Shown: positions 34,635-54,375, numbered from the stretch's first letter. The stretch is 64,000 nt of DNA from Candidatus Bathyarchaeota archaeon (GCA_963775895.1 CAVZKL010000010.1:58265-122264); one strand, 5' to 3'. Made by a program: numbers and translations. The notes: a model not told the origin generated them from the sequence alone.

Positions 34635-34744
34635 ATACTCGCATACGTGATTGATCAGAAATCTTTGCGTTTCGCAATTTCATACAAAGAAAGAAAAGGC
34701 GAGAGACTCGCCACGTGGATACTTTGCTTCTTTAAGACTTCAGT

Positions 34745-35032: not shown

Positions 35033-35289
35033 TTTTCTTCACTCCTTTTTTTGGTTGTTATGTGTGTAGCGTTGTGTCTCTGTCTACATGTTCTGAACAG
35101 AACGCTACCGCGCGATTATAATGCACAAGTCTCCTTTATAAATCCGCTGAAAACAATGTTCTATTTCATTCCTCTATGACAAGCTCCAACACGCTTTACC
35201 AACGCCTGTTTTAGTAGCGACCGTGCAAAAAGGCTATGTTCTTGAACGCGCCTGTTGCAGAATGCACGACTGAATGCTGGAGAAGCAAC

Positions 35290-35976: not shown

Positions 35977-36053
35977 ACAAGAACTAGTAGCGCGCGCAGA
36001 GAATTCAAGCACAGACACATCCCCAAAACAGAGACACCCAAAGGCCCGCAGAA

Positions 36054-36138
36054 CATATTTGGATCCTAATATTCATGATACATTGAAACCGAGGAGGGGA
36101 GGTACACAATAAGCTTTTTTTCAGCGAATAAACCTTCA
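36054..36138 (-). repeat. ~85-bp dispersed non-coding element, copy 1 (inverted)
   Basis: Reverse complement matches copies 2 and 3 except in the C/T tract. Confidence 0.95.
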
Positions 36139-36206
36139 GCGCACCCAACCCACAATAAACCCATGACCTCCTAGCTCGCGCGCGCGGTTCAACGCCGTCC
36201 AGCGTT

Positions 36207-37124
36207 CTACGGAACGGCTAGGTCTTTTCTTCCCACCCTCGCCAACCCGTTTGAACGTCTTTGAACGATGAACGGGATAACCGCCTCAACAAACAAGAAA
36301 GCAAGCGTGCCATAAACAACCCCGCCGATAACGTCCACGACATAATGCTCCCCGAGATACACCGTGCTAAACCACACGCCGAACGGAAGAACAAGCACGG
36401 GCAACGCCTTCACTCTCACTATCTTGAACGCGTACAACGAGATCAACCACGGATACATCGCATGAAGACTCGGAAACGCAGCGAAAGGATTAGACTGAAC
36501 AAAATCGAAGATCGTGCGATAAAAAGGCACACCCAAGTGCTGATCCAACTGAAACAAGACACGAGTAGCCTTAACCCCAAACCACGGAGGCGCCACCGGA
36601 TAGAAAAGGAAAGTGATCAAAGCCGCATACGTCCCGACGACAAGAGTCAGAGTGTACCCCCCATAGTTCTTGGGATAAAACTTCCACAAAACGAACGCAA
36701 AAGTCACCGGAAGTACAAAATGCAAAGAATAAAAAAAAGCTCCCATATAATCCAGGAAAGGACTTCTAAAATACTGCTGCAGCACGAGAGTCGGAATCGA
36801 ACCGAACAATCGCAAATCAGCATTTATAGGCCAAGTAACATGCACAGCTCCCGAAAGACTGGGAATCAACCCGTAAAAAGCTTCATAACCCAACAGAAGC
36901 GCCACAAAAGGAAACCAATCCTTCACAAAACGGCGACTCCTCCTATCGTACGCAGCGTACATGAAAAAACACAACACAATGATCTCAGGCCCAGGAATCA
37001 CCCCATAGGCCAGACAAAAAACCAGCAAAATCGCCACAAAAACAGCCGGAACCCCAACAGTCAAGATGCGTGAAAAACGCTCCTCAGATCCCCCGCCAGA
37101 TTCTGATACGGTTTCTTTGTTCAT
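36207..37124 (-). CDS. PAP2/IPC-synthase-like membrane phosphatase or phosphotransferase
   Basis: YPVAPPW, AAFPSLH, EHYVVDVIGG; multiple TMs. Confidence 0.88.
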   Translation of the reverse strand: MNKETVSESGGGSEERFSRILTVGVPAVFVAILLVFCLAYGVIPGPEIIVLCFFMYAAYDRRSRRFVKDWFPFVALLLGYEAFYGLIPSLSGAVHVTWPINADLRLFGSIPTLVLQQYFRSPFLDYMGAFFYSLHFVLPVTFAFVLWKFYPKNYGGYTLTLVVGTYAALITFLFYPVAPPWFGVKATRVLFQLDQHLGVPFYRTIFDFVQSNPFAAFPSLHAMYPWLISLYAFKIVRVKALPVLVLPFGVWFSTVYLGEHYVVDVIGGVVYGTLAFLFVEAVIPFIVQRRSNGLARVGRKDLAVP

Positions 37125-37423
37125 GGAGTTTTCACGCTCGCTTTTCGGGGATGCCAGCCACCTCGTTAGGCAACTTTTCGGACAAACGCAACTTTGACCC
37201 AAACCAGTTCACGTTCAACAACCATCGTCTATTAAACAGTTTCTCAGAATCAGACCAAACTCCACGTCACGAACGTGCGCGCAGGGATTCAAAGACTATC
37301 AAGAAAACAACACCCTGAAACAACCAGATTCCTCTCGACAAACTCCATGAAAGTCAAACCTCACCATCCCAACGCACATCAACCAAAAGTTTATACCAAC
37401 TATGAACTCTTGCTCTAGACGAA

Positions 37424-38320
37424 ATGACAGTCCAGATTTCACCATTCAATCAAGAACACGCGTCCTCCATCGCTACCCTCCTGAATGAAGAGTACAAGAA
37501 TACGTACGAATTCATCCCCTTCGACGAAAAGACGGTCCTATCCCACATCAAGAAACACGGTCTCAAAATTCTCGTGGCGGAAGAAAGAGGCAAACTGAGG
37601 GGTCTAATCGCAACTCACCCCGAGGAACACTCGGAAGAGAGCATACACTGGCTTGCTGCTCAGAAAGGAAATGACCACGCAAGCATCGAGAACATGCTGA
37701 TCAGAGAAGTTGAGGAAAACGCCAAAGGAGACACTGTTTCAACGATGGTTGACGAAGGAAGCCCAAGAATCAACGACTGGATTGACCGCGGCTACGTTCT
37801 CCAGCCAGGGTTTCAACGCATGTCTGCAAAACTGAACAACCTGAAACCTGTTCCGGAGGTAGCCGAAAACATCACGTTACGAAGTCTAAATGCGAGCGAA
37901 GAAGAAAAACTAGTCGCAGTGATCAACGCAGGGTTCGGATGGCCAAGGCTGGAGCCCGGAGCCCTTCAAGCTTGGAAAACTGAAGATCCACCGTTCAGTG
38001 AAGAGTGGGTCCAAGTCGCAGAGGTCAACGCGAGATTCGTATCAGCAGTCGTGGCCAGGCCGGACACTGATTACGCAAGGTATTTCGGACTGAAAAGAGG
38101 CTATCTTGGTCCAGCCGCCACTCTTCCAGATTTTCGGAACAAGCACCTTGCATCAGCACTCACAGCTCAGGCAATGAACTTTCTATTCCGAAAAGGAATG
38201 GAATCCGTAAGGCTCGGAACTTCTGAGCAGAACGCCTCTTCAATTGCTTTGCTCACGAGTCTCGGCTTTCAAGTGGACAACGTCAGAAAGATCCTCCGCA
38301 AGAAGCTAAGAAACACTTGA
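37424..38320 (+). CDS. Tandem GNAT acetyltransferase
   Basis: PDFRNKHLASAL, N.SSIAL..SLGF. Confidence 0.8.
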   Translation: MTVQISPFNQEHASSIATLLNEEYKNTYEFIPFDEKTVLSHIKKHGLKILVAEERGKLRGLIATHPEEHSEESIHWLAAQKGNDHASIENMLIREVEENAKGDTVSTMVDEGSPRINDWIDRGYVLQPGFQRMSAKLNNLKPVPEVAENITLRSLNASEEEKLVAVINAGFGWPRLEPGALQAWKTEDPPFSEEWVQVAEVNARFVSAVVARPDTDYARYFGLKRGYLGPAATLPDFRNKHLASALTAQAMNFLFRKGMESVRLGTSEQNASSIALLTSLGFQVDNVRKILRKKLRNT

Positions 38321-38491
38321 TTTTAAAGCAAGCCACTCGGAGGCAATTGACAAAAGGATACGAAAGTTAGAAGCCAAAATTCCATCTCACTCGCACACCA
38401 ATTGATTCAGACACAGCTGCACTAATTGTCGCTCAAAGCAACAAGCATATGAATTGAAGTACGAAACTTCTAGTGTCGTGATACGAAATGG

Positions 38492-39688
38492 GTGCAGCGA
38501 GACCACGTTAAGCTGCTGATTGGACTTTCTCTCATAATTATCATTGTCTCGGCCGTGGCTGCGTGGCATTTCTTACTCACTTCCTCTAACAGACCGTTTC
38601 TCTGGAAACAGGAGAGTGTTTTCGGCTTTGACAATTTCGGAACATCAACCTACAAAGACAACGTGCTCTACGCCCCTTCAAAAGGCAACAACAAAGTCTA
38701 CGCCATAAACGCTTCAAACGGCGGTGTCATCTGGAGTCAAGAAGTGAGACAGTGCGACGGATCCCCGTACATCGACACAGACGTGATATACGTCGGTGAA
38801 TGCTCGGGTCCCAACGGCGAACCAACGCCCGCCCCCGAGGCAATGGCTCTCAAAAAAGACTCGGGCGAAGTAGAATGGTCCTTTGTCGAACCAAGCGACA
38901 CGCCATGGGTCGGTTCACCAGTGGTCAACGGTGAACTCGTTTATTACACCAGCCTAGGCACTGGAATCTACGCTCTGAACAAGACCAACGGAAATCCAGT
39001 GTGGCATCAGAATGTAGGAAAAGTGGTGTGTTCAGCAGCTTACGACAACGGATTGGTCTTTGTTTCAGCCAACGACCCTCCGGGGCAATACGCGTTCAGC
39101 GCTATGAATGGAGAAATCGTTTGGAATGAAAGCTATGGCTCTTCATGGGACTCTTCGCCTGTGGTCTATGAAGGAACGGTAGTTCAAGTTGCAGGAAACG
39201 TGACAAGAAAACAATATTCAACCTTCGTCTTAAACGAGACAACTGGACAACTAATCAGAAGATTCGAGGGAAGAGGTGGACAAAGCACCCCTCTGGTCCA
39301 TGGCGGCGAGATATTCATTCCAAGCCAAAACTGCGCAATATGGACTTACGACCTTACAACTGGAACAGAACTGTGGCACACCACAAACCTTACAACCAGC
39401 ACACCTAACCTTCTCCGTCCAGACCTGAGCTATTGTAGCCCATTGATTGCAAATGGTACAATCTACTATCAGTCGCTGAGTGGAACGTTCTACGCAATTG
39501 ATGAGAAAACCGGAAACACAATCTGGTCCCGAGAACTCGGAAGCGACGGGTTTGGTAGCCCCAGCGTCGGGGATGGCAAGGTTTTTATCACTAATGATTC
39601 TGCACTGTACGCCTTTGAAATAGCCACCATCAGCAGTGAATGGACAATGTTCTGCAAAAACAGTTTTCACCAGAGCTTTGCTGGATGA
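38492..39688 (+). CDS. Membrane-anchored PQQ-like (BamB-type) beta-propeller protein
   Basis: N-terminal TM; repeated YALN..NG..VW / SP(V/L) motifs. Confidence 0.85.
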   Translation: MQRDHVKLLIGLSLIIIIVSAVAAWHFLLTSSNRPFLWKQESVFGFDNFGTSTYKDNVLYAPSKGNNKVYAINASNGGVIWSQEVRQCDGSPYIDTDVIYVGECSGPNGEPTPAPEAMALKKDSGEVEWSFVEPSDTPWVGSPVVNGELVYYTSLGTGIYALNKTNGNPVWHQNVGKVVCSAAYDNGLVFVSANDPPGQYAFSAMNGEIVWNESYGSSWDSSPVVYEGTVVQVAGNVTRKQYSTFVLNETTGQLIRRFEGRGGQSTPLVHGGEIFIPSQNCAIWTYDLTTGTELWHTTNLTTSTPNLLRPDLSYCSPLIANGTIYYQSLSGTFYAIDEKTGNTIWSRELGSDGFGSPSVGDGKVFITNDSALYAFEIATISSEWTMFCKNSFHQSFAG

Positions 39689-39866
39689 GGCACTTAACGC
39701 GCGTTTGACAGCGCAGACCGGACCCGATCTTTGCTTTGACAGCGTTCATTCTTGCCATACTTGCCAGAGTCGCGATGACAAATAAGATGTCGTTGATACC
39801 GAAAAGCACTGCTTTCACGCCCTTACAGGCTTTCAAGCAGACCACTCCGGCGCGCGCAAGATGCTT

Positions 39867-40844
39867 TCATGAAAGATACTTCAAGGCCGCTGCGACAGCG
39901 CCGTAAAGGACGACATCTTCGCCCAAAGGCGTGACCATTATTTTGGGAATTCTGTTTATGGCATAGTCCTTGACATGTTTTTTGATGGGAGATAGAACCG
40001 CGTCCTTGTTCTTCAAAGTCACGGTTCCCCCAACTGTGATTAGGGATGGATCGTACGCGTTGATGGCTGTTGCGAACCCCATAGCGTTGAGCAATCCTAT
40101 TTCACTGACCAGTTTACGAGACAGCGTGTCTCCTCCCTTGGCTGCCTCAAAGAGATTCGCTGCAGTCAGGTCTGACAGGTCAAGTCCACGTTTCCTTGTC
40201 AACGCACTTTCTCTTGCGGTTCTATCGGGCAGTTCTTTCACTCTCATTCGAACGTAATTTGGGATGTTTCGCCCGGAGCAGTAGCCTTCCCAGTGGCCTC
40301 GCCGTCCGCAACCGCAGGTCAATCTGCCTTCACAATCGATCACAAAATGTCCGACTTCATGGCCATTGCCATCTTTTCCCAGGAGAAGGGTCCCATTTTC
40401 GATGATTCCGCCGCCTATGCCAGTACTGATTGTTATGTAAACAAAGTTGTCGTGCCCTTTCGCAGCTCCAAACTTGTGTTCGCCCAATGCTGCGCCTGCG
40501 CAGTCGTTGATCAGGCATGAAGGCACACCCAGCTCCTCCGTAATTGGTCTGGTCAGGAGTACACGTTGGAAGGGCAGGTTCGGGGGATGAATGAGTACTC
40601 CGTCTTCCTGAACGAGTGGACCTGCTGACGCTATGCCCACACCCGCCATCGTTTTCGCATCAAAGCCATGCTTGCTGCACAAGAAGCGTATGAGCCGAAC
40701 CATCTGTTTGCTAATGGCTTCTGAACTCGTGATGTCAACTCTCTCTTGCGCCCTCGCTACGAAGTTACCCGCTTCATCTGCAAGGACCACTCTTACCCAC
40801 GTGCCTCCGAGATCTACTCCTACCCAGCGTCTAGTTCCAATCAC
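39867..40844 (-). CDS. ROK-family sugar kinase (glucokinase-like)
   Basis: GVDLGGT, ND...ALGE, STGIGGG, EVGH, CGCG..GHWE. Confidence 0.9.
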   Translation of the reverse strand: MIGTRRWVGVDLGGTWVRVVLADEAGNFVARAQERVDITSSEAISKQMVRLIRFLCSKHGFDAKTMAGVGIASAGPLVQEDGVLIHPPNLPFQRVLLTRPITEELGVPSCLINDCAGAALGEHKFGAAKGHDNFVYITISTGIGGGIIENGTLLLGKDGNGHEVGHFVIDCEGRLTCGCGRRGHWEGYCSGRNIPNYVRMRVKELPDRTARESALTRKRGLDLSDLTAANLFEAAKGGDTLSRKLVSEIGLLNAMGFATAINAYDPSLITVGGTVTLKNKDAVLSPIKKHVKDYAINRIPKIMVTPLGEDVVLYGAVAAALKYLS

Positions 40845-40874
40845 TTTTCATCACTCCATGCGATGATTTGATCA

Positions 40875-41530
40875 TCATCCGCAACACACTTGGTAGTTCT
40901 TTATGAAACGGCTAAAGGTCTTAACTTTTCTTGTGCTTCGCATGGAAAAAGCAGAATAGGTTATAGCGTCCTTCGAAAATACTGATTGATGACGTGTCGG
41001 AGTGACTAAGCGATTCCTCGTTCTTTTCTTGCCGCTTGTGCACACTCGACGTTTACGGCTTTGGCCAAGCCGCCTGAACTCTTCGTCGGTCATCCATTCA
41101 GTCTTGAGATAGTTGCAGATTCTCTTCTCACCCAGACCGAGACGTCTTGCTTCTTCGACGGCAGCCCTATACGCTTCGACTTCTGTTGGTCTCTCAACGT
41201 ATTCGAAATTGTGATCAAAGAGTTGCTTGCCTTCCATAAACTGTCTAACGTGGACGAGTTCGTGGACAATGTCAAGGTAAATGTCTGTTCTGTTGCCCTT
41301 GCTCAGATAGTCTGCGCTGATTATCATGTGACCGTCGACTTCGCTCACTCCCATGTAGCCTCTTCGTCCAACAAACTCCACTCTCAGTTTCGCCAGCACC
41401 GTATCGGTGTTGTCTCCGAAAATCTTTCTTACGGCCCCGATTCTCTCGAAACCCTTGAAATAATCCGTAAAAGGATAGGTTGCTACTGGAGCTTTGCGGG
41501 TTATGTAGACGTTTAGTCGTGGAGTTATGG
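40875..41530 (-). CDS. Hypothetical protein with zincin-like HEXXH; ends uncertain
   Basis: VHELVHVRQF...EVEAY; frame stays open ~130 nt upstream of the called start. Confidence 0.65.
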
Positions 41531-41659
41531 CGTTTGATCCTCCTTGCCTTTTTGCGTCAACAGAGAGAGTAGACTAGTAAAGTTTATCCTTTCGTATAAG
41601 TCTTCAGAATCGACTGTCAACGTTCAAGGAAGGTTAAGGTTATCGCGTTTCACGTAAAA

Positions 41660-42484
41660 GTGATGTCAAAGAGGGACTTCCCCTTCGCGGTTGCAGCAAC
41701 TGACAAAATGGGCTGGGGTTTGTCAGAACAGGATTTCGAATTCTCTTTGGAGCTTGAGCCGGAAGGATGTTTCGTGCTTCTTGACGATTCTGAAAGAATA
41801 GGTTTAGCCACCACCGTCAGCTTCGGCACAGTGGCGTGGTTCGGAAACCTTGTTGTCAGTGAAGACAGGAGAAACAGGGGCGCAGGATCAACCCTCGTAA
41901 ACCATGCACTGAAGTACTTGAGAAGCAGAGGCGTGAAAACTGTGGGATTGTACGCCTACAAGGAAAGAATCCATTTTTATGGAAGACTCGGGTTTCAGTC
42001 TGATTCCGAGTTTTTAGTTCTGAAAGGAACAGGTTTCGCTTCCAAACCAAAAGCGATCGCCAGAAGAGTCTTTGAAGAAGACCTCGATAAGATAATGGAT
42101 TTTGACTGCTCCTGCTTGGGTGCTTCAAGGAGAAAAATGCTTGCCCCGATAATCTCGGACTCGGACAACCTGTGTTACGCAGCGTATGAAGAGGGCAGAG
42201 TCTCTGGCTACGCAGTGGCCAAGGTGTTCGATGGAATGGTGGAGCTGGGACCGCTGTTGTGTGTGAAGGGGAAAGAAAAACTCGCGGTTGAGCTTCTGAA
42301 AACGATGCTGAATGAACTCTGCGGTAGTGAAATCTCCCTGTTTGCCCCCGTGGAGGAAACCTCTATTATCTCAATGCTTAAGAAAGGGGGTTTTCGAGAA
42401 AGCTTCAGGGTTCAAAGGATGTTCTTTGGACCGCCCGTCGTGAGTGATTGCGTCTACTTGGCCGAATCTTTGGAGAGAGGTTGA
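41660..42484 (+). CDS. GNAT acetyltransferase (YitH-like)
   Basis: RNRGAGSTL, FYGRLGF, LGPL. Confidence 0.82.
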   Translation: MMSKRDFPFAVAATDKMGWGLSEQDFEFSLELEPEGCFVLLDDSERIGLATTVSFGTVAWFGNLVVSEDRRNRGAGSTLVNHALKYLRSRGVKTVGLYAYKERIHFYGRLGFQSDSEFLVLKGTGFASKPKAIARRVFEEDLDKIMDFDCSCLGASRRKMLAPIISDSDNLCYAAYEEGRVSGYAVAKVFDGMVELGPLLCVKGKEKLAVELLKTMLNELCGSEISLFAPVEETSIISMLKKGGFRESFRVQRMFFGPPVVSDCVYLAESLERG

Positions 42485-42491
42485 TGATGAG

Positions 42492-43868
42492 ATGTCAGTA
42501 AACTTGTGCGCGATAATTTTGGAAGATTTCCTCAAAAACTCGTGGAGTTGCGTTGAAACATTAGTTAAAGGGTTGGACGTGTTTAAGGAGGAGAAACGAA
42601 AACCTGTCGAGTTGTACTGGTTTAAGAATGGACAGAAAACGAGCGTCACACACGATGGTTCACGATTCTTTTTGAGATGCTCCGTGGAATACGCGAACCC
42701 TCAGCTTACGGTGGAGGATGTTCAGGGCATAATCGCGACGCGACTGCTTGAAGTCACGGCTGACTATTATCATCAGCATGGTTTGCATCCGCCGACTCCT
42801 CAGGAAGCGGAGGAGATTTGTGCGTTGCTCAAGCAGCCCTCTTCTGGGATGGTCGTGCCGTTTCTGCTGAACACTGATGACATCGAGGCAGATCGGTATT
42901 CGATGAACCCGCTCAAAGAATCGATAGTTGAGAGCGGACAGAGCGCTTTGCCTGCGGCGGCCGTTAAGACGGATGGTCTCAGGGTGGACGAGAAGTTTCT
43001 TCAGAAGTATGAGGGCTCGCTTTTCTGCATCGGCGAAATTGACAGCATAGAGAGGCATCTGAAGTCGGGCGTCAGCTACGTGGACATGGTGGACGCTGTC
43101 AAGTACGAACATCTGGCGAAACTGTCAGAGTCGTTCGGTATTGACCTTTGCATCCATTCGGTGCGTCTGCCGCTGACCGCTTTGCAGAGAGAGGATTCTG
43201 CTGGTCTGCTTCATCACATCGTGAGAGAGACTCACAGAGATTATCAGGCTGTTGAAAGTGTTTACAGGTGCATGGGAAGAAGCATGAAGAACCTGTCGAC
43301 GCTTCTGACTGTTCCACACTCTCCGAAGGGTTACGGGTCGAAGCGTGCGGCAAGAGGGAGGATATATTTTGATGGAAGTAGGCTCAAGAGCGTCAAGGTG
43401 GATTATAAGACTACTTTGTTGTATCCGAACGCGATTGACCCGGCGGATGTGAGCGTGGCGAAGGCTGATGACAGTTTTACGGTGGAGGGTGACAGGCTTG
43501 TGAACTACAGTTTTAAGGAGACGCCTTCTTCGCCGCAGTTCTTCTTGTATTCTTTGGCGTCGCCGGAAGATGCGGTTGTGTGGCATGGCATCGGAGCCTT
43601 CGGCGCCTCAGAACTGCTGAAGAGCTACACGACAACGCGGATGGCTTGCTCGTCGGGGTTGCTGCTCAAGGATCTGGCGGAGAAGTATGGGGTCCAAGTG
43701 AGAATTCCGTTGCAGTTCAACTTGGTTCCGAAGTATATCTGGTTCCACCCTGTGCACCGCAACATAGACGCGAGCATAGGCTGCGTTCAAAACTTGAAAG
43801 ATCTTGCGGACATTGGCATGAGAATGGAGTACTTGCCGACGGAACAGTATATTAGGAAACAAGAGTAA
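42492..43868 (+). CDS. Hypothetical protein (~458 aa), no family recognised
   Basis: Long intact ORF with host-like codon skew, tightly packed between neighbours. Confidence 0.8.
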   Translation: MSVNLCAIILEDFLKNSWSCVETLVKGLDVFKEEKRKPVELYWFKNGQKTSVTHDGSRFFLRCSVEYANPQLTVEDVQGIIATRLLEVTADYYHQHGLHPPTPQEAEEICALLKQPSSGMVVPFLLNTDDIEADRYSMNPLKESIVESGQSALPAAAVKTDGLRVDEKFLQKYEGSLFCIGEIDSIERHLKSGVSYVDMVDAVKYEHLAKLSESFGIDLCIHSVRLPLTALQREDSAGLLHHIVRETHRDYQAVESVYRCMGRSMKNLSTLLTVPHSPKGYGSKRAARGRIYFDGSRLKSVKVDYKTTLLYPNAIDPADVSVAKADDSFTVEGDRLVNYSFKETPSSPQFFLYSLASPEDAVVWHGIGAFGASELLKSYTTTRMACSSGLLLKDLAEKYGVQVRIPLQFNLVPKYIWFHPVHRNIDASIGCVQNLKDLADIGMRMEYLPTEQYIRKQE

Positions 43869-43880
43869 GAGGGTGTTTCC

Positions 43881-44489
43881 ATGTTGTTCAAGCAGATCAA
43901 GTATCGTGGCGACAACTTCTCTTACATCATTGCTGACGAGGGGACGAAAGAAGCTGTGGTGGTTGATCCGAGTTATAACGAAGATGCGTTGACGTTGTTT
44001 ATTAAAGATCAGAAGTTGAAGCTTGGTTACATTATTGACACGCATGGTCATGGGGATCACACTGCTGGGAATGATGGTCTGAAACGGGCTTTTGGAGCGA
44101 AGGTCGTTGCCCACAAGGTGTCTAGAATTGAGAAGGACGTGTCGGTTGTTGAAGGAGACGTTTTGAAAGTGGGGAAGGTAACGATCAAGGTGCTTCACAC
44201 GCCGGGGCACACGGCGGACAGCATTTGTCTGCTCGTTGACGGAAAGGTACTGACTGGAGACACGCTCTTCATCGGTGAGTGCGGAAGGACTGATCTTCCG
44301 GGCGGAAGCCCTGGGGACATGTACCGCAGCCTTGGCAAGCTCAAGAAGTTGGATGATGGGGTTGAGGTGTATCCGGGTCACGATTACGGACGGAAACCGT
44401 ACTCGACGATGGGTGAGGAGAAGCGTACAAACTATACGCTTGAGAATCGGACTCTGGAGGAGTTCTTGGAGTTCATGTCGAAACCTTAG
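43881..44489 (+). CDS. Metallo-beta-lactamase fold hydrolase (glyoxalase II/ETHE1-like)
   Basis: THGHGDH, TPGHT, TGDTLF, PGHDY. Confidence 0.9.
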   Translation: MLFKQIKYRGDNFSYIIADEGTKEAVVVDPSYNEDALTLFIKDQKLKLGYIIDTHGHGDHTAGNDGLKRAFGAKVVAHKVSRIEKDVSVVEGDVLKVGKVTIKVLHTPGHTADSICLLVDGKVLTGDTLFIGECGRTDLPGGSPGDMYRSLGKLKKLDDGVEVYPGHDYGRKPYSTMGEEKRTNYTLENRTLEEFLEFMSKP

Positions 44490-44578
44490 GCTTTAGGTTG
44501 TTGGGTGTGGATGGGGATGATCACCTTTATTATGAACGTGTTGGCTAGAACTCAGGCACTGAGCGGCGAGCGTTGGTT

Positions 44579-46013
44579 ATGGCTGGCAAGACGTTTTCGT
44601 ACACGATAGAACCAGAGATTCCTGCGTCCTACATGGGCAGTCTATTGGATTTTGTCTATCAGAAGTACGTGCAGCCTCAGCAGAAGCGGTTTGCTGATGT
44701 TTCCAGGTCTGAAGATTGATGGGTATCCGACGTTGAGCTTCGTCGTTTTGGATGGATCTGGGAAGAGAAGCGTGGAAGTGAGGGTGAAGGGCAGCAAACC
44801 GTTGCAGCTGAGTATCACGCCGGTTGGGGAGAATGTGGGTGAAGAGGCTGCGGATCAGGTTAGGCAGGACATTCTGATCACGGCGGAGATGTTTGAGGAG
44901 AAGGTGAGGGAGAGCACGTTGTTTTTTGCTTGGCGAGAGGGCGAGGAGATCGTTCCGGAGAAGTCTTTTGGAAAGGGAAACAAGTCGTTGAACCGCATTT
45001 TTCTTGAGACTCAGGTCCTTCTTGCTATTATATTCATTACGCTGGGCATTTTCTTGTTCTATTTCCTCGGCGTGTACACTCCGATTGTTCTGCTGGCGTT
45101 TCAGTTTGTTTTCGTGGTGTATTCGCCGAAGATCATTGAGAGGACGTCGGATTGGCACATTACGAAGGAGAATCCGATTATTCATTTGCTTGAGTACAGT
45201 TTGCCTTTTGAGGAGCATGACAGTTTTAGGCAGAAGTATCCTCCGGAGAAGATTGCTGAGATCAAGAGGGACGTGTATGCGGAGACGATTGCTAAGAACG
45301 GGGAGGTTGACTGTGAGACGACTGGGCGGATTTTTAATAAGTATGGGTTTGCGTGTAGTCCGGAGAACTTGTCTGTTAAGAAGGTGAACGTTTATGAGCT
45401 TGTTAAGAAGGTTGCGGACAAGTTTCATTTTAAGGTTCCGAAGATCGTTGTGTCGAACACGTTGGCTCCGAACGCGGCGGCCACTGGGCCGAGTCCGGGT
45501 CGTGGGTTGGTTTTGATCACCACTGGGGCTCTTGTGCAGTTGGAGGAGGATGAGCTTCTGAGTGTTCTGGGGCACGAGTTTGGTCATTTGAGGGGGCGTG
45601 ATCCGTTCTGGCTGTACGGGTTGTCCGCGGTTCAGTATCTTCTTTGGTTCTACGTGATCTTCGGGTTCTTTCCCACGAGTTCGTTCCTTCTTCTTATCAT
45701 TTACTTCTGGGTGCTGTCGACTATAACGTATTTCATCGCGAAGTTTTTTGAGGCGAGGGCTGATTTGACGTCGGCGATCGTGATGGGGCAGCCGAACATT
45801 CTTGCGAACGCTCTGGAAGAGATCGGGTTCAAGAGACTGCTGATTGAGCGGGTTCCGTCTTACCGTATTCAGGAGTGGATCAGTTTTGATCCGCATCCGC
45901 CGATTTATTTCAGGGTTAACCGTCTGAGAAAGTTCAAGGAGGGCACCGTGGTCAAGCATCCGCTGTGGCAGTCGGCCAGCGAGGTGACGAGGGGCTTCTT
46001 GAGCAGCCTGTGA
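44579..46013 (+). CDS. M48 (HtpX-like) membrane zinc metalloprotease (frameshift near 44710)
   Basis: PNAAATG, HEFGH, EARAD, HPP...R. Confidence 0.88.
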
Positions 46014-46017
46014 GTTG

Positions 46018-46106
46018 AGGTTTATTCGCTGAAAAAAAGCTTATTGTGTACCTCCCCCTCCTCGGTTTCAATGTATCATGAATATTAGGATCCAAATATG
46101 CCCGGT
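46018..46106 (+). repeat. ~85-bp dispersed non-coding element, copy 2
   Basis: AGGTTTATTCGCTGAAAAAAAGCTTATTGTGTACC-(C/T tract)-CGGTTTCAATGTATCATGAATATTAGGATCCAAATATGCCCGGT. Confidence 0.95.
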
Positions 46107-46235
46107 GTGGCTTAGCGCGCGCTGTGGTGAAGGTTGCCTGGGAAGAGAGATAGAGAATAGTTCTGGAGCGTCTTTTTCCGTAGGTGGACTCCGTTGACTT
46201 TCGTGGAGAAGGAGTGGGAGTGAGGAAGTTGATTG

Positions 46236-46622
46236 CTAATTCTTAGACCACTTGTATGCGTACCAGACAATTAGGGCTGAAAACACGATTCCGAAGACAG
46301 AGTTTATCGCAAGAACGGATTGGTATTCCAGATATTGTAGCAGAACGACTATTACGAGGACAACATAGACTGTCCCTGTGATAATGTTTGTCCAACGATT
46401 CGCTTTGTCTTTCAGAGTTTGGGAAAGGAAAGCCATGATCAACGGAACCAAGAATACGATTGAGAGCAATAACAAATATGCTGGTCCTATTGGCTCACCT
46501 CTTTTTACACCGGACCTAATCTGGTCTATCACACCTGGCTCGTAGAACTCCAATAATGTCGAGGCTAGCCCACTCACTGCATTAATTAGCCACAAGACAG
46601 AAAGCCTTGTCTTCAAAGCCAA
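46236..46622 (-). CDS. Small membrane protein (DUF6326-like)
   Basis: LKTRLSVLW, PLIMAFLS..LKDKANRWTNII, LIVWYAYKW. Confidence 0.7.
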   Translation of the reverse strand: MALKTRLSVLWLINAVSGLASTLLEFYEPGVIDQIRSGVKRGEPIGPAYLLLLSIVFLVPLIMAFLSQTLKDKANRWTNIITGTVYVVLVIVVLLQYLEYQSVLAINSVFGIVFSALIVWYAYKWSKN

Positions 46623-46816
46623 ATCCTCCGTGGCCTATCACCTCCGTTTTCCCTTTTTACGTCATTTCTATGATGTGATTTCAAGTTGTATTAATAGTCT
46701 AAGAAAGATCTCTCCATCATCCAAGTCCCGAAGAGTTGACAGAAACCGTAAATCAAGAATAGACGGGGGAAAATCAGCTCAAAAGGGCTGATAGGAGATA
46801 AATCTGCAGTGTTTTG

Positions 46817-47263
46817 TCACTCTGGAAAGAGTTTCTTTGCTTTCTCTGTGGGTTCGATCACACCTATTTGTTTGAGGAAATCCAGCATGTCACGAATTGA
46901 CTTTCTCTCCACAACCTTGCCATCAGCTATACGCCAGATACCGACACCTGTGTATGTGATCTTCTTACCAGTGGGAGGGAATGTGATCCCGAATAGGTTC
47001 CATTCGCCCGTGTGCGTCCCCGTAACCTTGAAGTGAACCCACACCTTATCCTCTTCAGCGATTATGTCCTCAATGGTCTCAGAGTAATCTGGAAAGCCTT
47101 TGATGAACATAGCCTCGGATTTCTTGAAACTATCCAGACCCTGTAACTGAAGTGTGTGGTCAACGAAATCAGATGCGATAAAACTGTCCAGTAGGGCTAG
47201 GTCATGCTTGTTGAAAGCTTCAAACAAACCTTGAATGATAGCCTTATTCTTTTCCAATGACAC
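46817..47263 (-). CDS. SnoaL-like ester cyclase (NTF2 fold)
   Basis: NKAII, FPD..ETIEDIIAEEDKVW, GTHTGE, PPTGK. Confidence 0.85.
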   Translation of the reverse strand: MSLEKNKAIIQGLFEAFNKHDLALLDSFIASDFVDHTLQLQGLDSFKKSEAMFIKGFPDYSETIEDIIAEEDKVWVHFKVTGTHTGEWNLFGITFPPTGKKITYTGVGIWRIADGKVVERKSIRDMLDFLKQIGVIEPTEKAKKLFPE

Positions 47264-47348
47264 AGAGCATCCCCTTACTATCAATCCTGTGGTTCAGCTA
47301 TGACTTTTCCGTGCGCGCTACATGATTTTTGCAGAACTGGTTTGGCCG

Positions 47349-50300: not shown

Positions 50301-50609
50301 TAGATAGTCTCTGATGACTTCGCTCCATAGAATGTATGGTGGAACGCCGTCCATTCTGAACAGTGCTGGGCATCTGCCATAAAGGACCTGCATTCCTCGC
50401 AGGTGTGCGTAGGCTCTTAGCTCTCTTGCGAGTCTTGTTTTGCCGATTCCGGCCTCACCGTAAAGAAACACGAGCCCGCCCTCGCCCTGAATCGTCCTGT
50501 CGACTGCTTCTTTCAGAAGTTTCATTTCTTCGACTCTGTCGATGAGCGGAATCTCCCTTGCAGCGATGGGACGGGGACTCGGAATGCGGCCGCGTTCAAG
50601 TGACGTCAA
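47349..50609 (-). CDS. STAND-type AAA ATPase with TPR array and C-terminal beta-sandwich domain (two frameshifts)
   Basis: GEAGIGKT, DDLQW.D, GNPFF, ARLDRL, TPR-like repeats over ORFs 48582-50609, 48146-48571 and 47349-48080. Confidence 0.87.
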
Positions 50610-50761
50610 GAAGACTTCTCCACATCAACTTGTCAATAACATATTATTAGATTCTACGTTCTTATCGCTTGTGGAAGAACATCTAATTCAATCCCCAGCT
50701 GCAACTGCTAAGAATGAACAAGTGAAGACTGATAGAAAAGAAAACTGGAAGGCGTTCGGGT

Positions 50762-51160
50762 TTAGATGGTGAGTACTCTGTAGTTGTCGTCTCTTAGGTA
50801 GTCGGTCAGCTGTTTGCCCATGTACTTGACTTCTATGCCAAGCCGCTTCAGGTCGTCTGAAACTCCGTATAGGTCTGTGCATTTTTTGCATGCCTGCAGT
50901 TTGATGCCTGCCTCTTTCATGTCGACAATGTGCTCTTGTAATTCCTTGTCTTCGGCGAGTAGCTTGGATGAGGGTCCCCACACGATTAACGTAACGTTTT
51001 TCCATCCCCACTTGAAGCGTTTCGAATTGAAAGTGTACATGAACGCCATTTTCAACGCTACTTCTCTGTCTCCGCTCGTCCACAGCACGACCAGCTCATC
51101 TGGTTTAGAAGAGTTTTTGCCCTTGGCATGTTCTTTTTTGCTCAAATTCATTCCCTTCAT
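50762..51160 (-). CDS. DsrE/DsrF-like protein
   Basis: LWTSGDREVA, WGPS, ACKKC, YMG..LT. Confidence 0.8.
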   Translation of the reverse strand: MKGMNLSKKEHAKGKNSSKPDELVVLWTSGDREVALKMAFMYTFNSKRFKWGWKNVTLIVWGPSSKLLAEDKELQEHIVDMKEAGIKLQACKKCTDLYGVSDDLKRLGIEVKYMGKQLTDYLRDDNYRVLTI

Positions 51161-51224
51161 CTTTCTAGGTAAACGAATAACACGTTTTAAACTTGTGTTT
51201 AGCTATAACTTTTCCGCAACATCG

Positions 51225-51431
51225 TTAGGTTTGTTTGTCTGGTTCTACCCTAACGCTAAGAGGTCCGATCCCGGCAAGAGATGGCAAGATGTGTGATAAT
51301 AGTTGCTCAGCACTGAGTAGCCGAACTTTGCCGTTTGGATTGGTTTGTGTCCAACCATTCTTCTCTTTATGGTATCTTTGTATATAGCCATGTTTGGTTG
51401 TGGTGTAGATTGTGCACTCATTATTTTTCAA
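51225..51431 (-). CDS. Small hypothetical protein
   Basis: GGTGA RBS, own promoter-like box, SAEQLLSHILP motif. Confidence 0.6.
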   Translation of the reverse strand: MKNNECTIYTTTKHGYIQRYHKEKNGWTQTNPNGKVRLLSAEQLLSHILPSLAGIGPLSVRVEPDKQT

Positions 51432-51577
51432 CTGAATTCACCAATCCAAACAGTCACTTTTGGTTCAGCTAAGCTTTTCCGCAAAACCGAAAACTTAGGC
51501 TAACAAGGAATATGTCAAAACTGTTAAACATGGAAACACGCCATAGATTAGAAGTGGCGGGGTGTGAAAAGAGAAAC

Positions 51578-52138
51578 ATGGCTGTGGAAGAGAAGCATCC
51601 AAAAAACCAGATAACTCTGAACCCGATCAGAAGACTATTTGGCAGGTTTGAAAACCCTCAAGAACATGTTAGACCCTATGTCGCTAGCGGTCAGGTTGTC
51701 GCTGACATTGGTTGTGGGTCGGGTTACTATACGCTCGCTTTGGCTGAATGCGTTGGTCCAGAAGGAAGAGTGTACGCTGTTGACTTGAATGAAAAGGCTA
51801 TTCGCACGTTGGAAAAGAAGGCGGATATGTTCGGTTACCACAACATCGAAGCACACGCTTCATCTGCGACAGACCTGAGTTTCATAAAAGACAGGTCGAT
51901 TGACTTCGTTCTTGCCAATGGACTATTGTGCGTAATGGCTGGCAACAGACAGTCAGCCGTGAACGAAATAAAACGCATAATCAAACCAAATGGAAAAGCG
52001 TATCTCAGCTTAGGTTCGCCGCCGCCTCTTGGTCATGTGAATCGGGTGGAGTGGGAGAAAATACTTGAAGGGTTTAGAGTTGAACGAAGGGGCGGTTTTC
52101 TCCAAAAGTGGGCTCTGGTGTCAGCAAAACAACAGTAA
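51578..52138 (+). CDS. Class I SAM-dependent methyltransferase
   Basis: DIGCGSG, VGPEGRVYAVD, RIIKPNG. Confidence 0.87.
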   Translation: MAVEEKHPKNQITLNPIRRLFGRFENPQEHVRPYVASGQVVADIGCGSGYYTLALAECVGPEGRVYAVDLNEKAIRTLEKKADMFGYHNIEAHASSATDLSFIKDRSIDFVLANGLLCVMAGNRQSAVNEIKRIIKPNGKAYLSLGSPPPLGHVNRVEWEKILEGFRVERRGGFLQKWALVSAKQQ

Positions 52139-52175
52139 ACCTGTGTTTGTTAGGGAAGTTCTATCCCAAACCCTT

Positions 52176-52481
52176 CTATTTCTTGCTTTCAGCTTCTATG
52201 CCAAGAAAATGCTTAGCCACAACGAGATGCATAGCTGGAACTATGGCATGCAGACCAGCAAAGATTGCCAGCAGTAACCAAATCATTGGTTGTAGGACAA
52301 GAGTGGTGTTCAAAGCGTCACCAATGATTCCTAACGCAGCGAATAGAAAGCTAAGGTACGAACTGACGCTACTAGCCATCGCACATCTTCTAATCTCAGC
52401 TTTTACGTGCTCACGGTTCTTGAAAGGTTGGTTTTGTAAATTGCTTGCCATATTGGACATCACCCCCTTTTCTTTCTTCAA
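52176..52481 (-). CDS. Small two-TM hypothetical protein
   Basis: Hydrophobic segments, own promoter-like box. Confidence 0.6.
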   Translation of the reverse strand: MKKEKGVMSNMASNLQNQPFKNREHVKAEIRRCAMASSVSSYLSFLFAALGIIGDALNTTLVLQPMIWLLLAIFAGLHAIVPAMHLVVAKHFLGIEAESKK

Positions 52482-52778
52482 TATCGAGTGAACTAATGTC
52501 TTTTCGGTTCTGCTATAACTTTTCCCCCAAACCCAAAACTGCGTTTACGCTTCCTCAACCATCTATACTCTCATACGCGTGCGCTTCCGCCACGACCCGT
52601 TCCATACAAATGCTGATATCTCCATACCCACAGTGTGTGCTATAGGTTTTTAGGATCGATCTCCCTATATGAATAGTGGGAGAAGATCGCTCAGTTGAGG
52701 GGGCTCACGTGCTGACGATGGCATCTCCTCGGTTGCGGGTGATGGCGGGTGCTGGGAGTGTTTGAGTCTTCAGTCAAA

Positions 52779-54105
52779 TTGAAGAAAACGGTGTTGCTTC
52801 TCTTCGTCGCATCCATTTCACTTACATTGGTCTGCACACCTACGATAGTCGTGAAAGGACGCGAAGAAGGAGCGTACAGTTTAGGAGTCTACTCTGAATC
52901 CAGTTGCATCTATCCCTTCCGTTTCAACTTCTTGGCTCTTAACAGGGGGGACGCAAAGAACGTCACTGCGTACCTGAGAAACGATGGAACTGAAAACGTG
53001 ACTGAAATCACGACGACAGCTTGGTCTTGGAGTCCGCCTTCGGCCGCAGAGTACGTGGGGTTGACGCTTGACTGTGGCAGTCAGTTTCTTCAGCCCAGTG
53101 ATGTGACGGATGGTACGTTTACGATTCACGCGTACGAGAATGCCTCGTTAGGCTCATTCACTTTTCTCCTTGACGTAGATGCCCACTATGGCGCTGTAAT
53201 TTTCACTAAAACGCTCATTGTGGATGGTTACATAGCTGAGCCTCATCCCGTGTTCTCCGTGTTTTCCGATCATGGAAGCCCGACCCCGTCCGTTGGAGAC
53301 CACACCTACAATTCTTGGGACAGTATAATGTGTTCGGTCGCGCCCGTTGTGGAAGAGAATGGGCTTTATTGGGCTTGCACAGGGTACAACGGTACGGGCA
53401 CGATTGAAGGAACCAGTAGCTTTTGGGCTGCATTTTTCCCGATACTCGAAAACTCCAGCATCACGTTCAACTGGCAACAGATTCCCTCGTTCAACACGAC
53501 TCTAACCTTCTCGCGAGCCTCTTACTCGTATGTGGCAGCAGAAGCGTTCAACGTGACAGTCGTCGCGCAGAACGTCAAGAATCTGCAAGCATGGCAGATA
53601 GGGTTAAGCTACGATCCCAACATCCTCGAATACGTAAACGTGTCGATCCCTTCGGACAACGTTTTCCAGGGTCACGACGTGCAATTGCTGGGGCCTGACA
53701 CCAGCGTTCCAGGCTACGTAGTGTTAGGGTTGGGACCAACACCAGAAGACCTCTTCTCGGTTAATGGGTCTGGCAAGTTGTGCACGTTCACTTTCGTTGG
53801 CAAGAGTCCTGGCAACTCGTCACTAACTCTCTCGAATTTCGGCCTTTGACACCTTTCTGTTGAACGCTTCTGTGAATGACATTCGTTTCATGGTTGGAAA
53901 CAGCTGTGCGAGCTCTGTCAAATTCCACGGCGACGTTAACAAGGACGGAGTCGTCAACATGAGAGACGTCAGCGAAGCGCTATTGGCATTCAACTCCTTC
54001 CCAGGCACGAACAGATGGAACGCCAATGCAGACTTGGACAACAACGATCACGTCGACATGAGAGACATAGTCATGATAATCGTCAACTTCAACAAGCACG
54101 AGTAA
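52779..54105 (+). CDS. Secreted surface protein with cohesin and dockerin domains (frameshift ~53845)
   Basis: Signal peptide; FNVTV...LSYDPNILE...GSGKLCTFTF cohesin; DVNKDGVVNMRD...DLDNNDHVDMRD dockerin. Confidence 0.82.
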
Positions 54106-54150
54106 GCCACGCGCGCGCTAAGCCTGTGTCTCGACTAACTGCGTTTGCCA

Positions 54151-54242
54151 TGAAGGTTTATTCGCTGAAAAAAAGCTTATTGTGTACCCTACCCTCCTCG
54201 GTTTCAATGTATCATGAATATTAGGATCCAAATATGCCCGGT
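54151..54242 (+). repeat. ~85-bp dispersed non-coding element, copy 3
   Basis: Matches copy 2 apart from the C/T tract. Confidence 0.95.
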
Positions 54243-54375
54243 AAAGGATGTTCGGCGAGCGCGCGCTGCTTACAAGCTTCACCGCATTCTAGGTGTGCGC
54301 TGGCAGTGGCTTCAACGTTACACGAAGGTGTGGAAAAGATTTATTAGAACGAAGTTAGGATTGTCGGTGCGGGTC

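Follow-up and report, generated by a model that had tools for sequence, protein, structure and literature searches.

The DNA analyzed here is a 64,000-nucleotide stretch (the window) of a 1.77 Mb Bathyarchaeia MAG, and it contains three copies of a short non-coding element, two of which face outward from a segment of about ten kilobases. The features of the locus are as follows.

35990-35997, 36178-36185, 46115-46122, 54111-54118 and 54259-54266, no strand assigned: GCGCGCGC, a genome-wide intergenic motif
36054..36138, minus strand: element copy 1, with the core 36-mer at 36054-36089 and the near-palindrome at 36055-36072
36090-36138, minus strand: left half of copy 1, with TTTATT, a GCTG-A7-AGC hairpin-like motif and CTTATT
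36139..46017, no strand assigned: segment between the outward-facing copies 1 and 2, with a G+T gradient and an inverted block
46018..46100, plus strand: element copy 2, with the left half at 46018-46064, the core at 46065-46100 and the near-palindrome at 46082-46099
54154..54236, plus strand: element copy 3, with the core at 54201-54236 and the near-palindrome at 54218-54235

A sequence-only reading of the window had described three near-identical elements, and all three are real and lie where it placed them. Copy 2 (46018-46106) and copy 3 (54154-54242) are 97% identical across 89 nt, and copy 1 pairs with both as inverted arms of 40-59 nt at 90-100% identity. The differences between the three, said to fall mainly in a C/T tract, lie in that tract and in an A-run. 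The core 36-mer reads GTTTCAATG...AAATATG. The conserved module is about 50 nt long and consists of a C-rich tract followed by TMGG, TTTCAAYGTAYCRTGA, an 18-bp palindrome and a final G. The palindrome, correctly described as near-perfect, is ATATTAGGATCCAAATAT here and is perfect over 18 bp, ATATTTGGATCCAAATAT, in most relatives. Copy 2 begins 5 nt past the stop codon of an M48 peptidase ORF (44652-46013). Copy 3 has a dockerin-domain ORF (53860-54105) on one side and a class II tRNA-synthetase-like gene on the other; this gene has a conserved promoter of its own, with TATA at ~54340, and a start codon at 54376, each of them downstream of the copy.

Genome-wide, the three copies belong to a set of 36 near-identical ones at no more than three substitutions (21 exact, 13 with one, one with two and one with three), distributed over 19 of the 28 contigs. 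The copies are ~85-95 nt long and all 36 lie outside the gene calls of our own crude gene model. Since a reversed-pattern control gave no match in 101 genomes, the copy number far exceeds chance. A conserved core of ~45-50 nt is present in 9 of the genus's 10 genomes and is 87-98% identical among genus members, whose coding DNA is only ~70% identical; across the taxonomic family the element has a patchy distribution, in 9 of 101 genomes and 7 of 70 genera. All 36 copies carry ATTAGG where most copies of the relatives have ATTTGG, a uniformity that indicates concerted evolution. Element copies are absent at orthologous sites in relatives, gene order relative to these is broken 10-20 nt or less from the copies, and comparison with five relatives shows the block from approximately 39890 to 46008 to be inverted relative to the flank at 34681-35183. 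No clean empty site was found, even between contigs C2 and C16, which are 90-93% identical and part 27 nt ahead of the element, and the ~70% identity of the relatives is too low for an exact empty site. The element is dispersed and probably mobile at the DNA level, and the intact core in long-kept orthologous copies suggests a host-level function as well.

The motif GCGCGCGC, previously linked to the copies, does occur near all three of them in the window. This proximity is coincidental: a core is found within 300 nt of just 8 occurrences, and only 4 of the 36 copies have one within 100 nt downstream (by eye). With 254 occurrences against 18.5 expected, 213 of them outside gene calls, it is a separate motif and not a part of the element.

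Three identities had been offered for the element, the first being a solitary CRISPR repeat unit with its own leader, or an RNA derived from one. Because the element starts with TTTCAAT, its reverse strand ends ATTGAAAC, like the ATTGAAAG that ends the reversed repeat of an array beside Cas1 in the relative G004; the 36-nt length and the internal palindrome are likewise those of a CRISPR repeat, and Cas1 is found in 7 of 11 genomes of the genus, a fragment in this genome included. However, the G004 repeat, GCTTTCAATTCCCTCTAATTGGGATTTCTCGATGAAC, compared by eye, shares only TTTCAAT with the element, and the likeness of the 37-mer to the genus's own CRISPR repeat ends there. The element is never arrayed, with a single copy in each of the 21 stretches found in 185,579 species genomes; it has no match in viral contigs, and a crude k-mer scan of this genome for a CRISPR array found none. 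The sole Cas1 trace in the whole assembly is a 22-bit fragment on contig C1. On the window's contig the Cas1 search gave nothing, which agrees, for Cas1, with the earlier statement that the window lacks cas genes. With every copy solitary, no Cas1 beyond that fragment and a sequence unlike that of the genus repeat, the CRISPR candidate was rejected; it is close to refuted, and we regard it as extremely improbable.

The second identity, a dispersed sRNA or mobile promoter cassette, fares better in that the element is dispersed, probably mobile and has a promoter-like left half. The sequence of this half, AAAAAGCTTATTGTG, is very similar to the conserved promoter found at the neighboring synthetase-like gene, GAAAAGATTTATTAG, and at its orthologues, AAAAAGCTTATTAGG. 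As a family of small-RNA genes with a promoter in the left half of each copy, the element would encode a short RNA with a conserved, unstructured C/U-rich 5' module (CCUCC, anti-Shine-Dalgarno-like) and a variable tail ending at a T-run. TTTATT marks the start of conservation and TCTTATC-type boxes lie upstream in relatives; inspection by eye shows four or more consecutive T in the 50 nt downstream of roughly half the copies, and at one orthologous locus a small hairpin and T-run are kept in three species despite differing sequence. Among 250 upstream regions of this genome, 35 have a Shine-Dalgarno-like motif at -15 to -11, and TATA-like hexamers are only weakly enriched at -60 to -31. The orientation of the element is random relative to flanking genes, which favors independent RNA genes and counts against the broader proposal.

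Several results weigh against such an RNA. The Rfam 15 covariance search that had been suggested gave no match at gathering score within the window and nothing on the element at E up to 10, and on neither strand do the copies fold better than shuffled sequence (35 copies; mean z +0.66 and -0.23), so that a structured RNA was rejected. The distance from TATA to core differs by ~11 nt between subtypes, the left half is not conserved in relatives, and 36 near-identical genes would be an odd requirement for a single RNA module. The proposed micro-ORF MYHEY* exists in this genome and is not conserved: variants read MYREY, and its start or stop codon is lost in relatives. A conserved small ORF was rejected, as the copies have no consistent one. 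Transcription also leaves unexplained the strand bias described below. Transcription-associated damage is in excess on the non-template strand; forward transcripts would need start sites kilobases upstream and would read roughly half the neighboring genes in antisense, and reverse transcripts would presumably bias the opposite strand. A small-RNA gene family is therefore considered unlikely.

The third identity, an att site, finds indirect support in tRNA-Cys sequences near the copies of relatives, although the core and the duplicated att sequence are distinct. At the true tRNA-Cys gene, and again at 5 further loci found in G001, G008 and G005, copies are preceded at a distance of 43-55 nt by the 22-mer that forms the 3' end of tRNA-Cys. 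G002 has two of these 22-mers, each with 0 mismatches to the pattern, one on either side of a ~150-nt insert that holds the element, and the flank past the second matches the native tRNA-Cys flank of the present genome. The duplicated tRNA end was seen in G002 only and is absent for the window copies. The copies could accordingly be passive integration scars, remnants of the arm beside attP of an integrative element, with the core a set of binding sites for a tyrosine integrase and its helper proteins. The 22-mer at no fewer than six loci in four relatives, the att-like duplication of G002 and the 10 tyrosine-recombinase matches (PF00589) in the assembly are consistent with this. However, the copies of this genome lack the 22-mer except at the true tRNA-Cys locus, no integrase gene is closer than ~2.8 kb to a copy, no transposase or integrase consistently adjoins the copies, and the copy number, the pairing and the polar tracts are left unexplained; as a full account, a passive arm remnant is very unlikely.

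Other classes of mobile DNA were compared. In the 88.8%-complete assembly there is no match to the Y1 transposase (PF01797) or to reverse transcriptase (PF00078), and none above cut-off to TnpB (PF07282), with one hit of 21.7 bits; an IS200/IS605-derived element (PATE) or TnpB guide-RNA end was rejected on the first and last of these results, and a diversity-generating retroelement or retro-conversion on the second. Paralogous loci have only 55-156 nt in common, with no ORF. MITEs and CIME-like remnants, the latter being cis-mobilizable remnants of integrative elements, are like this element short, non-coding, multi-copy, intergenic and devoid of their own gene, and vary strongly in copy number among related genomes; one version of the element is bounded by duplicated tRNA 3' ends, another shared feature. 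Unlike them, the element has no terminal inverted repeats within the unit and no target-site duplication in the flanks of paired copies compared by eye. It also differs in that its core is conserved across species at orthologous loci, its copies pair outward around kilobases of housekeeping genes, and they are tied to polar mutation tracts.

The pairing is evident from the order of the copies. Among 17 pairs of neighbors, 10 are in (-,+) order, forming outward-facing inverted pairs 4.1-25.8 kb apart, and 3 are in (+,-) order, at 49-113 kb. A V-shaped G+T gradient is present in 8 of the 10 (-,+) intervals, while (+,+) and (+,-) intervals are flat and two (-,-) intervals are skewed without a V shape. 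Across 36139..46017, plus-strand G+T climbs nearly linearly from 33-36% to 60-62%.

This gradient is the local form of a bias on the strand that carries the element. In successive 500-nt steps upstream, G+T on that strand is 0.607, 0.606, 0.581 and 0.563, and upstream values exceed 0.5 in 29-33 of 35 loci, against a mean of 0.502 (sd 0.053) for 500-nt windows of the genome. The richness extends at least 2 kb 5' of the copies and is strongest at third codon positions whichever way the genes run, with 0.609 in co-oriented genes (n=36), 0.284 in opposite-oriented genes (n=49) and 0.451 genome-wide. Lineage-specific A>G, C>T and C>G changes underlie it and increase towards the element. In four bins nearing copy 2, A>G/T>C counts are 23/13, 43/7, 44/1 and 64/4, C>T/G>A counts are 28/12, 29/8, 33/5 and 61/1, and C>G/G>C reaches 17/0. 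Substitution counts at the NrdD locus are 52/9, 43/9 and 18/4, and the NrdD orthologues of three relatives that lack the element are unskewed. The alignments behind such counts are at ~70% identity, and the outgroups G001 and G002, 93.5% identical to each other, are not independent. The signature fits, indirectly, polar single-stranded DNA 5' of the element, as would be expected of a chi-like or nick site. Changes since the split of C2 and C16 have no asymmetry, so the process is not visibly ongoing.

The association between tracts and copies is incomplete. While 21 of 58 strongly skewed tracts finish at an element of matching polarity, 35-37 end without a matching canonical one; some of the latter are integrase-linked islands, one has a matching copy inside, and near another lies just a copy on the opposite strand. 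Skew is weak or absent at about 14 of the 36 copies, among them the three that relatives share. Among relatives, G009 has the same polarity, with upstream means of 0.54-0.59 and a clear signal at 4 loci out of 7, G004 has little skew, and G001 and G005 have none at 21 canonical copies. In G005, the stretch orthologous to the window segment has a uniform skew, and the element at its end is just a degenerate, partial one. The unmatched tracts, the G005 segment and the unskewed copies of G001 and G005 would all be expected if another process made the tracts and the element merely inserted, in fixed orientation, in or beside DNA that is often single-stranded. Such a lack of causal link is distinctly unlikely, because elements lie at the 3' end of tracts rather than anywhere inside, because the bias is maximal beside the element and declines with distance, and because the NrdD and M48 tracts are lineage-specific and coincide with copies absent from relatives.

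A replication site could also produce polarity, if the element acted as a polar barrier to forks or bounded a local initiation zone, the DNA 5' of it being persistently replicated one way with a long-exposed lagging-strand template. An excess of G and T is typical of the leading strand, and its sign here would place a leading strand moving towards the element; the linear and V-shaped gradients between pairs fit as well. Archaeal origin recognition boxes contain GAAAC plus a G-string, and the conserved palindrome with its asymmetric part may loosely resemble them. The magnitude, however, is far beyond ordinary replication skew (third-position G+T of 0.61 versus 0.28), the copies of G001 and G005 have no effect, asymmetry is absent since the C2/C16 split, and 36 barriers per 1.8 Mb seem implausible. 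We consider this origin of the tracts quite improbable.

Known systems of strand asymmetry resemble the tracts in different respects. Chi sites, read by RecBCD or AddAB, are polar sites of 5-8 nt that occur about every 5 kb, co-oriented with replication; 5' of them the strand bearing the site is turned into a long single-stranded 3' tail, and the effect weakens over kilobases. The geometry of the element's tracts is the same, but the element is 50-95 nt long with 36 copies, and RecBCD is not known from archaea. In vertebrate mitochondrial DNA, A>G and C>T build up on the strand that stays single-stranded as a consequence of the regular replication mode. That gradient likewise is strongest at synonymous sites and linear with position, whereas the element tracts are local (2-10 kb), lineage-specific and apparently episodic. 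For kataegis, two reports (PMC6786661, PMC11230362) describe strand-coordinated C>T and C>G over kilobases beside rearrangement breakpoints, and treat such a one-strand excess as a mark of damage to long single-stranded DNA, as in resected breaks and break-induced replication. The tracts share these coordinated changes over kilobases, but differ in that A>G is as common as C>T, no TpC-type context was seen, and the changes have become fixed in a prokaryotic lineage, where a single specific repeat anchors them.

The best explanation, which we hold tentatively and at a little less than even confidence, is that the copies form a family of short non-coding DNA elements acting at the DNA level, each a cis site of mobile-element origin at a place where the strand it lies on was once single-stranded. 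The module most likely arose as a cis site adjoining the attachment site of a tRNA-Cys-targeting integrative mobile element and would now persist as small, non-autonomous remnants of MITE or CIME type, of which one subtype, with a ~45-nt left half, has multiplied here to most of the 36 copies. New copies would be tied to events that expose the element-bearing strand 5' of the element, single-stranded over up to several kilobases. The simplest such event would be a break or nick immediately 3' of the element, after which the complementary strand would be lost 5'-to-3' and recombinational repair would follow, in which 3' tails may prime copying of the element from another copy. What the data show directly is the copy number, the conservation, the solitary state, the pairing, the polarity, gradient and lineage-specificity of the mutation bias, and the link to the tRNA-Cys 22-mer; we infer single-stranded DNA as the cause, the break or nick, the copying route and any protein partner. 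The outcome would be A>G, C>T and C>G scars, coordinated by strand and weaker farther from the element, and outward-facing inverted pairs around segments of 4-26 kb, accompanied by inversions and gene-order breaks.

A more specific form is possible, though on balance doubtful: elements would mark out, or be joined to, both ends of linear pieces of the chromosome, 4-26 kb in length, whose two 3' tails were long and single-stranded before the pieces recombined back, sometimes inverted. Such fragments might arise in break repair, each 3' tail copying the element from another copy, or by exchange and uptake of fragments cut at elements, the 3' end entering first. If true, a process not described before would shuffle and hypermutate housekeeping-gene cassettes in an archaeon, with kataegis-like scars anchored at one mobile-element-derived repeat.

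The window, at C10:58265-122264 of the assembly G000, carries a non-coding repeat of about 85-95 nt, with a left half and a 36-mer core that holds an 18-bp near-palindrome and ends in AAATATG. Its three copies lie where the sequence-only reading placed them, and span, from left half to core:

36054-36138, minus strand, copy 1 of the element
46018-46100, plus strand, copy 2 of the element
54154-54236, plus strand, copy 3 of the element

Over 89 nt, copies 2 and 3 share 97% identity, and copy 1, on the minus strand, is 90-100% identical to them. The genome-wide search proposed in that reading found 36 core copies in the whole assembly (G000; 1.77 Mb, 28 contigs, 88.8% complete, 3.5% contaminated), spread over 19 of the 28 contigs with 20 on one strand and 16 on the other. 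Relative to the 36-mer core, 21 copies have no substitution, 13 have one, one has two and one has three. Alignment of these copies gives a conserved block of about 85-95 nt that runs from TTATTCGCTG to AAATATG and ends sharply; the flank beyond it falls into loose subfamilies, such as those with CACGCGTGCGG... and CCCGGTGCAGGATGTT.... Seven copies have GCTGTTTTTTCAGCC and most others GCTGAAAAAAAGC, which amounts to a hairpin with a flipped loop. Contigs assembled from four DNA runs end at or within elements, as a repeat would predict; none of the joints listed for these contigs bypasses an element, and the elements in them differ only in the length of an A-run.

The short motif GCGCGCGC, which had been tied to the element copies, occurs in the window at the following positions:

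35990, GCGCGCGC
36178, GCGCGCGC
46115, GCGCGCGC
54111, GCGCGCGC
54259, GCGCGCGC

Of all occurrences of the motif only 8 are 300 nt or less from a core, and its inclusion in the element is rejected. The motif is found 254 times in G000 against 18.5 expected (CGCGCGCG, 152 times), 213 times outside our own gene calls and usually as (T)AGCGCGCGCT(A) directly 3' of stop codons; it clusters in regions that also carry integrase genes (e.g. C10:42-53 kb, C23 and C11:2-8 kb, on contigs of G000). No other GC-rich 8-mer palindrome is enriched in G000. GCGCGCGC is a motif separate from the element.

The element is tied to polar mutation tracts of the single-strand type, and this tie is unusual and reproducible. 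On the element's strand, that is the strand reading the core towards AAATATG, G+T in successive 500-nt steps upstream (5') of the element is 0.607, 0.606, 0.581 and 0.563, compared with a mean of 0.502 (sd 0.053) for genome-wide 500-nt windows, and it exceeds 0.5 in 29-33 of 35 loci. Downstream, G+T is 0.569 in the first 500 nt and about 0.50 further out. A protein or codon-usage effect as the source of this bias is ruled out by splitting third-position G+T by gene orientation: within 2.5 kb upstream it is 0.609 in co-oriented genes (n=36) and 0.284 in opposite-oriented genes (n=49), with 0.451 for all 1,691 genes. Strongly skewed tracts, defined as at least 1 kb with G+T >=0.60 or <=0.40, number 58 and total 133.5 kb; an element of matching polarity stands at the end of 21 of them and 35-37 are without a matching canonical element there, and the skew is weak or absent at about 14 of the 36 copies. 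Skewed tracts of G000 without a canonical element at their end include:

C15:25000-43750, skewed tract
C18:56750-61250, skewed tract
C18:96500-105000, skewed tract
C23:15250-22500, skewed tract
C11:6000-8000, skewed tract

Several of these tracts adjoin tyrosine-recombinase or tRNA genes and are likely integrated elements. No common motif was found at the tract ends.

Substitutions were polarised at sites where three outgroups agree, in alignments of about 70% identity; two of these outgroups, the genus members G001 and G002, share 93.5% identity. Towards copy 2, over four bins, A>G/T>C counts are 23/13, 43/7, 44/1 and 64/4, C>T/G>A counts are 28/12, 29/8, 33/5 and 61/1, and C>G/G>C counts are 8/3, 6/4, 17/0 and 11/2. 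At the NrdD locus the same three ratios are 52/9, 43/9 and 18/4 near the element and 23/17, 22/13 and 4/5 farther away. No skew is seen in the orthologues of the NrdD 3' region from G001, G002 and G005, nor in those of the window segment from G001 and G002. In G005, a third relative, the opposite strand of the same window block is affected (T>C 109 vs A>G 31; G>A 168 vs C>T 47; G>C 60 vs C>G 4), and the 3' end of this tract bears only a degenerate partial element. The copies of G009 have the same polarity as those of G000, with upstream means of 0.54-0.59, clear in 4 of 7 loci; in G004 the polarity is barely visible (0.53), and 21 copies in G001 and G005 show no skew. Changes between C2 and C16, two contigs of G000 that are 90-93% identical, have no asymmetry, and therefore the bias is older than their split.

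Damage to single-stranded DNA leaves one strand with an excess of A>G, C>T and C>G changes, above all at synonymous sites. Two published studies ascribe strand-coordinated C>T and C>G changes to damage in long single-stranded DNA (PMC6786661, PMC11230362). A deaminase-type context was rejected, as TpC is not preferred; A>G changes are somewhat more frequent after an A and less frequent after a G. Lost deamination repair as the reason for the visible bias was likewise rejected, since Endonuclease V and UDG are present in G000 and throughout the genus. In three genus genomes (G000 C21:9109-9558, G004:C176:1766-2209 and G003:C4:10820-11254) no more than about 0.9-1.6 kb separates the UDG gene from an element copy, a nearness that may be subclade gene order or chance.

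Among the 17 pairs of neighbouring copies on one contig, 10 face outward (-,+) with their ATATG ends pointing away from each other, 4.1-25.8 kb apart; the others are three (+,-) pairs 49-113 kb apart, two (+,+) and two (-,-). A V-shaped gradient is found in 8 of the 10 (-,+) intervals, running from 33-36% to 60-62% in the window interval; no gradient is present in the (+,+) and (+,-) intervals, and the two (-,-) intervals have a skew but no V. Compared with all five relatives examined, the window block at about 39890-46008, which falls between copies 1 and 2, has the opposite orientation with respect to the flank at 34681-35183; the right breakpoint of this inversion lies within about 10 nt of copy 2. 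On C16, the gene order common with three relatives stops about 15 nt before a copy. C2 and C16 have housekeeping genes in common, and may represent two strains binned together or a segment that was duplicated recently; a comparison of the two revealed no empty site. Their similar stretch (C2:4697-12761 and C16:1905-10817, about 8 kb at 90-93% identity) carries PyrI, PyrB and an NrdD split into two ORFs on both contigs, and is equally skewed on both.

The 37-mer had been read as a CRISPR-like repeat, for which no support was found. The element stands in single copies everywhere, and a crude array scan of the whole genome found no array with it as the repeat in G000. Comparison with a CRISPR repeat of the clade, that of G004 beside Cas1, gave TTTCAAT as the only part in common. 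An exact IUPAC search for the core in one genome per species (185,579 species) returned 21 stretches with one copy in each, 20 of them titled Bathyarchaeia or Bathyarchaeota and one from an Acidiferrales MAG contig, and a search of viral contigs returned no match. The single exact match outside Bathyarchaeia (L043, DASPPK010000053.1, in a MAG titled Candidatus Acidiferrales bacterium) may reflect either mis-binning of the contig or a transfer. Cas1 is found in 7 of the 11 genus genomes, and in G000 just as a 22-bit fragment that is not on the contig of the window. As to the arrays themselves, the one in G004 (L050, G004:C24:1-250) adjoins a full-length Cas1, and its repeat GCTTTCAATTCCCTCTAATTGGGATTTCTCGATGAAC recurs every 75 nt. 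In several other genus genomes Cas1 is present only as fragments or as copies interrupted by stop codons. The crude scan also returned a four-copy direct repeat of short period at G000 C16:33746-33890, with the 18-mer TTTGTTGGTGTATGAGTG spaced at about 48 nt.

The suggestion that the element yields an RNA is likewise not supported. The Rfam search put forward with it gave no match for the element at gathering score nor at E up to 10, alifold on 35 copies found no structured RNA, and on neither strand does the folding energy differ from that of shuffled controls (mean z +0.66 and -0.23, computed on 35 of the 36 copies because a contig end truncates the remaining one). A protein starting at the terminal ATG was rejected, as the ORFs there have 3-129 codons (median 26) with no common sequence or family; the micro-ORF is lost in relatives. 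A promoter for downstream genes was rejected too: by gene calls from our own dicodon model, the downstream gene points the same way as the element in 15 of 35 cases and the opposite way in 20, and for the upstream gene the counts are 18 and 17, respectively. The synthetase-like gene 3' of copy 3 possesses a conserved promoter and a start of its own, and its orthologous loci are without the element.

The element is probably a DNA-level repeat of mobile-element origin. In G001, G008 and G005 elements are preceded, at a distance of 43-55 nt, by a repeat of the 3'-terminal 22 nt of tRNA-Cys, both at the true tRNA gene and at five other loci. At one locus of G002 (L010, G002:C4:23329-23515), the tRNA-Cys gene is followed by about 150 nt holding the element and then by a second 22-mer, and the flank beyond the latter is the native tRNA-Cys flank of G000. 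L010 is a miniature insert between att-like repeats, and this layout is the signature of site-specific integration. The paralogous loci have only 55-156 nt in common and no ORF, and would therefore be small non-autonomous remnants. Of the 24 predicted tRNAs of G000, only 2 have a copy at 1.5 kb or less. Clustering of the ORFs within 4 kb of copies gave no transposase-like family, no Y1 transposase, TnpB or reverse transcriptase scored above cut-off in G000, and no integrase gene adjoins an element copy; thus neither ORF clustering near copies nor enzyme searches in G000 found a partner enzyme. The sole enriched ORF cluster near copies, built by single linkage, has 31 ORFs; 12 of them are no farther than 4 kb from a copy, where about 5 would be expected. 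A dockerin domain is present in one member and a PQQ-like beta-propeller in another; 29 members are elsewhere in the genome and two are in the window:

38492-39688, member of the 31-ORF cluster
53860-54105, member of the 31-ORF cluster

A cohesin-like ORF is located at 52749-53849 in the window.

Among relatives, the core (a C-rich tract, TMGG and TTTCAAYGTAYCRTGAATATTWGGATCCAAATATG) is found in 9 of the 10 other genus genomes with 3-13 matches apiece. When up to 3 mismatches are allowed, 9 of the 101 family genomes sampled contain it, from 7 of 70 genera, the backwards control giving 0. The cores are 87-98% identical across the genus, though coding DNA is only about 70% identical to that of G000; the left half differs among species and loci. 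Some copies are orthologous: C17_164020 has counterparts in G005 and G009 that share its downstream gene region, G001 has a copy at the same place and in the same orientation as C17_46445, and the copy behind tRNA-Cys is common to G001, G002 and G008. G010 has a related copy behind a degenerate tRNA-like fragment. The palindrome reads ATTAGG in all 36 copies of G000 and ATTTGG in most copies of the relatives; this uniformity in G000 indicates either concerted evolution or co-evolution with a putative binding factor.

The geometry of the bias is constant: the element-bearing strand is affected on the 5' side of the element, maximally beside it and fading with distance. This is compatible with a break or nick just 3' of the element followed by 5'-to-3' removal of the complementary strand, with the recombining-in of single-stranded DNA whose 3' end would lie at the element, or with stalling of the fork at the element. 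Rolling-circle displacement, 5'-first transfer from the element and transcription from within it do not appear to fit, because each would predict the other strand or side. The outward pairs, with their V-shaped gradients, resemble linear fragments in which both 3' tails were exposed; each tail might prime copying of the element from another copy. Such tail-primed copying would explain the orientation rule, the common bits of downstream flank, the inversions and the episodic nature, as well as the lack of inverted termini and of target duplications.

A plain dispersed repeat is routine; the fixed geometry is the unusual part. In housekeeping genes A>G, C>T and C>G changes have altered one strand over kilobase tracts with the element at the 3' end, and outward pairs bracket V-shaped gradients and, in the window, an inversion. 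A literature search brought up no prokaryotic case of mutation tracts that are strand-coordinated and anchored at a sequence. The finding also warns against taking a locally skewed composition or odd codon usage in MAGs as necessarily a sign of foreign DNA. If the element truly marks the production of long single-stranded DNA, it would be a cis site whose protein partner could be sought, and would offer a handle on recombination, DNA exchange or break repair, and local hypermutation in an uncultured lineage of archaea.
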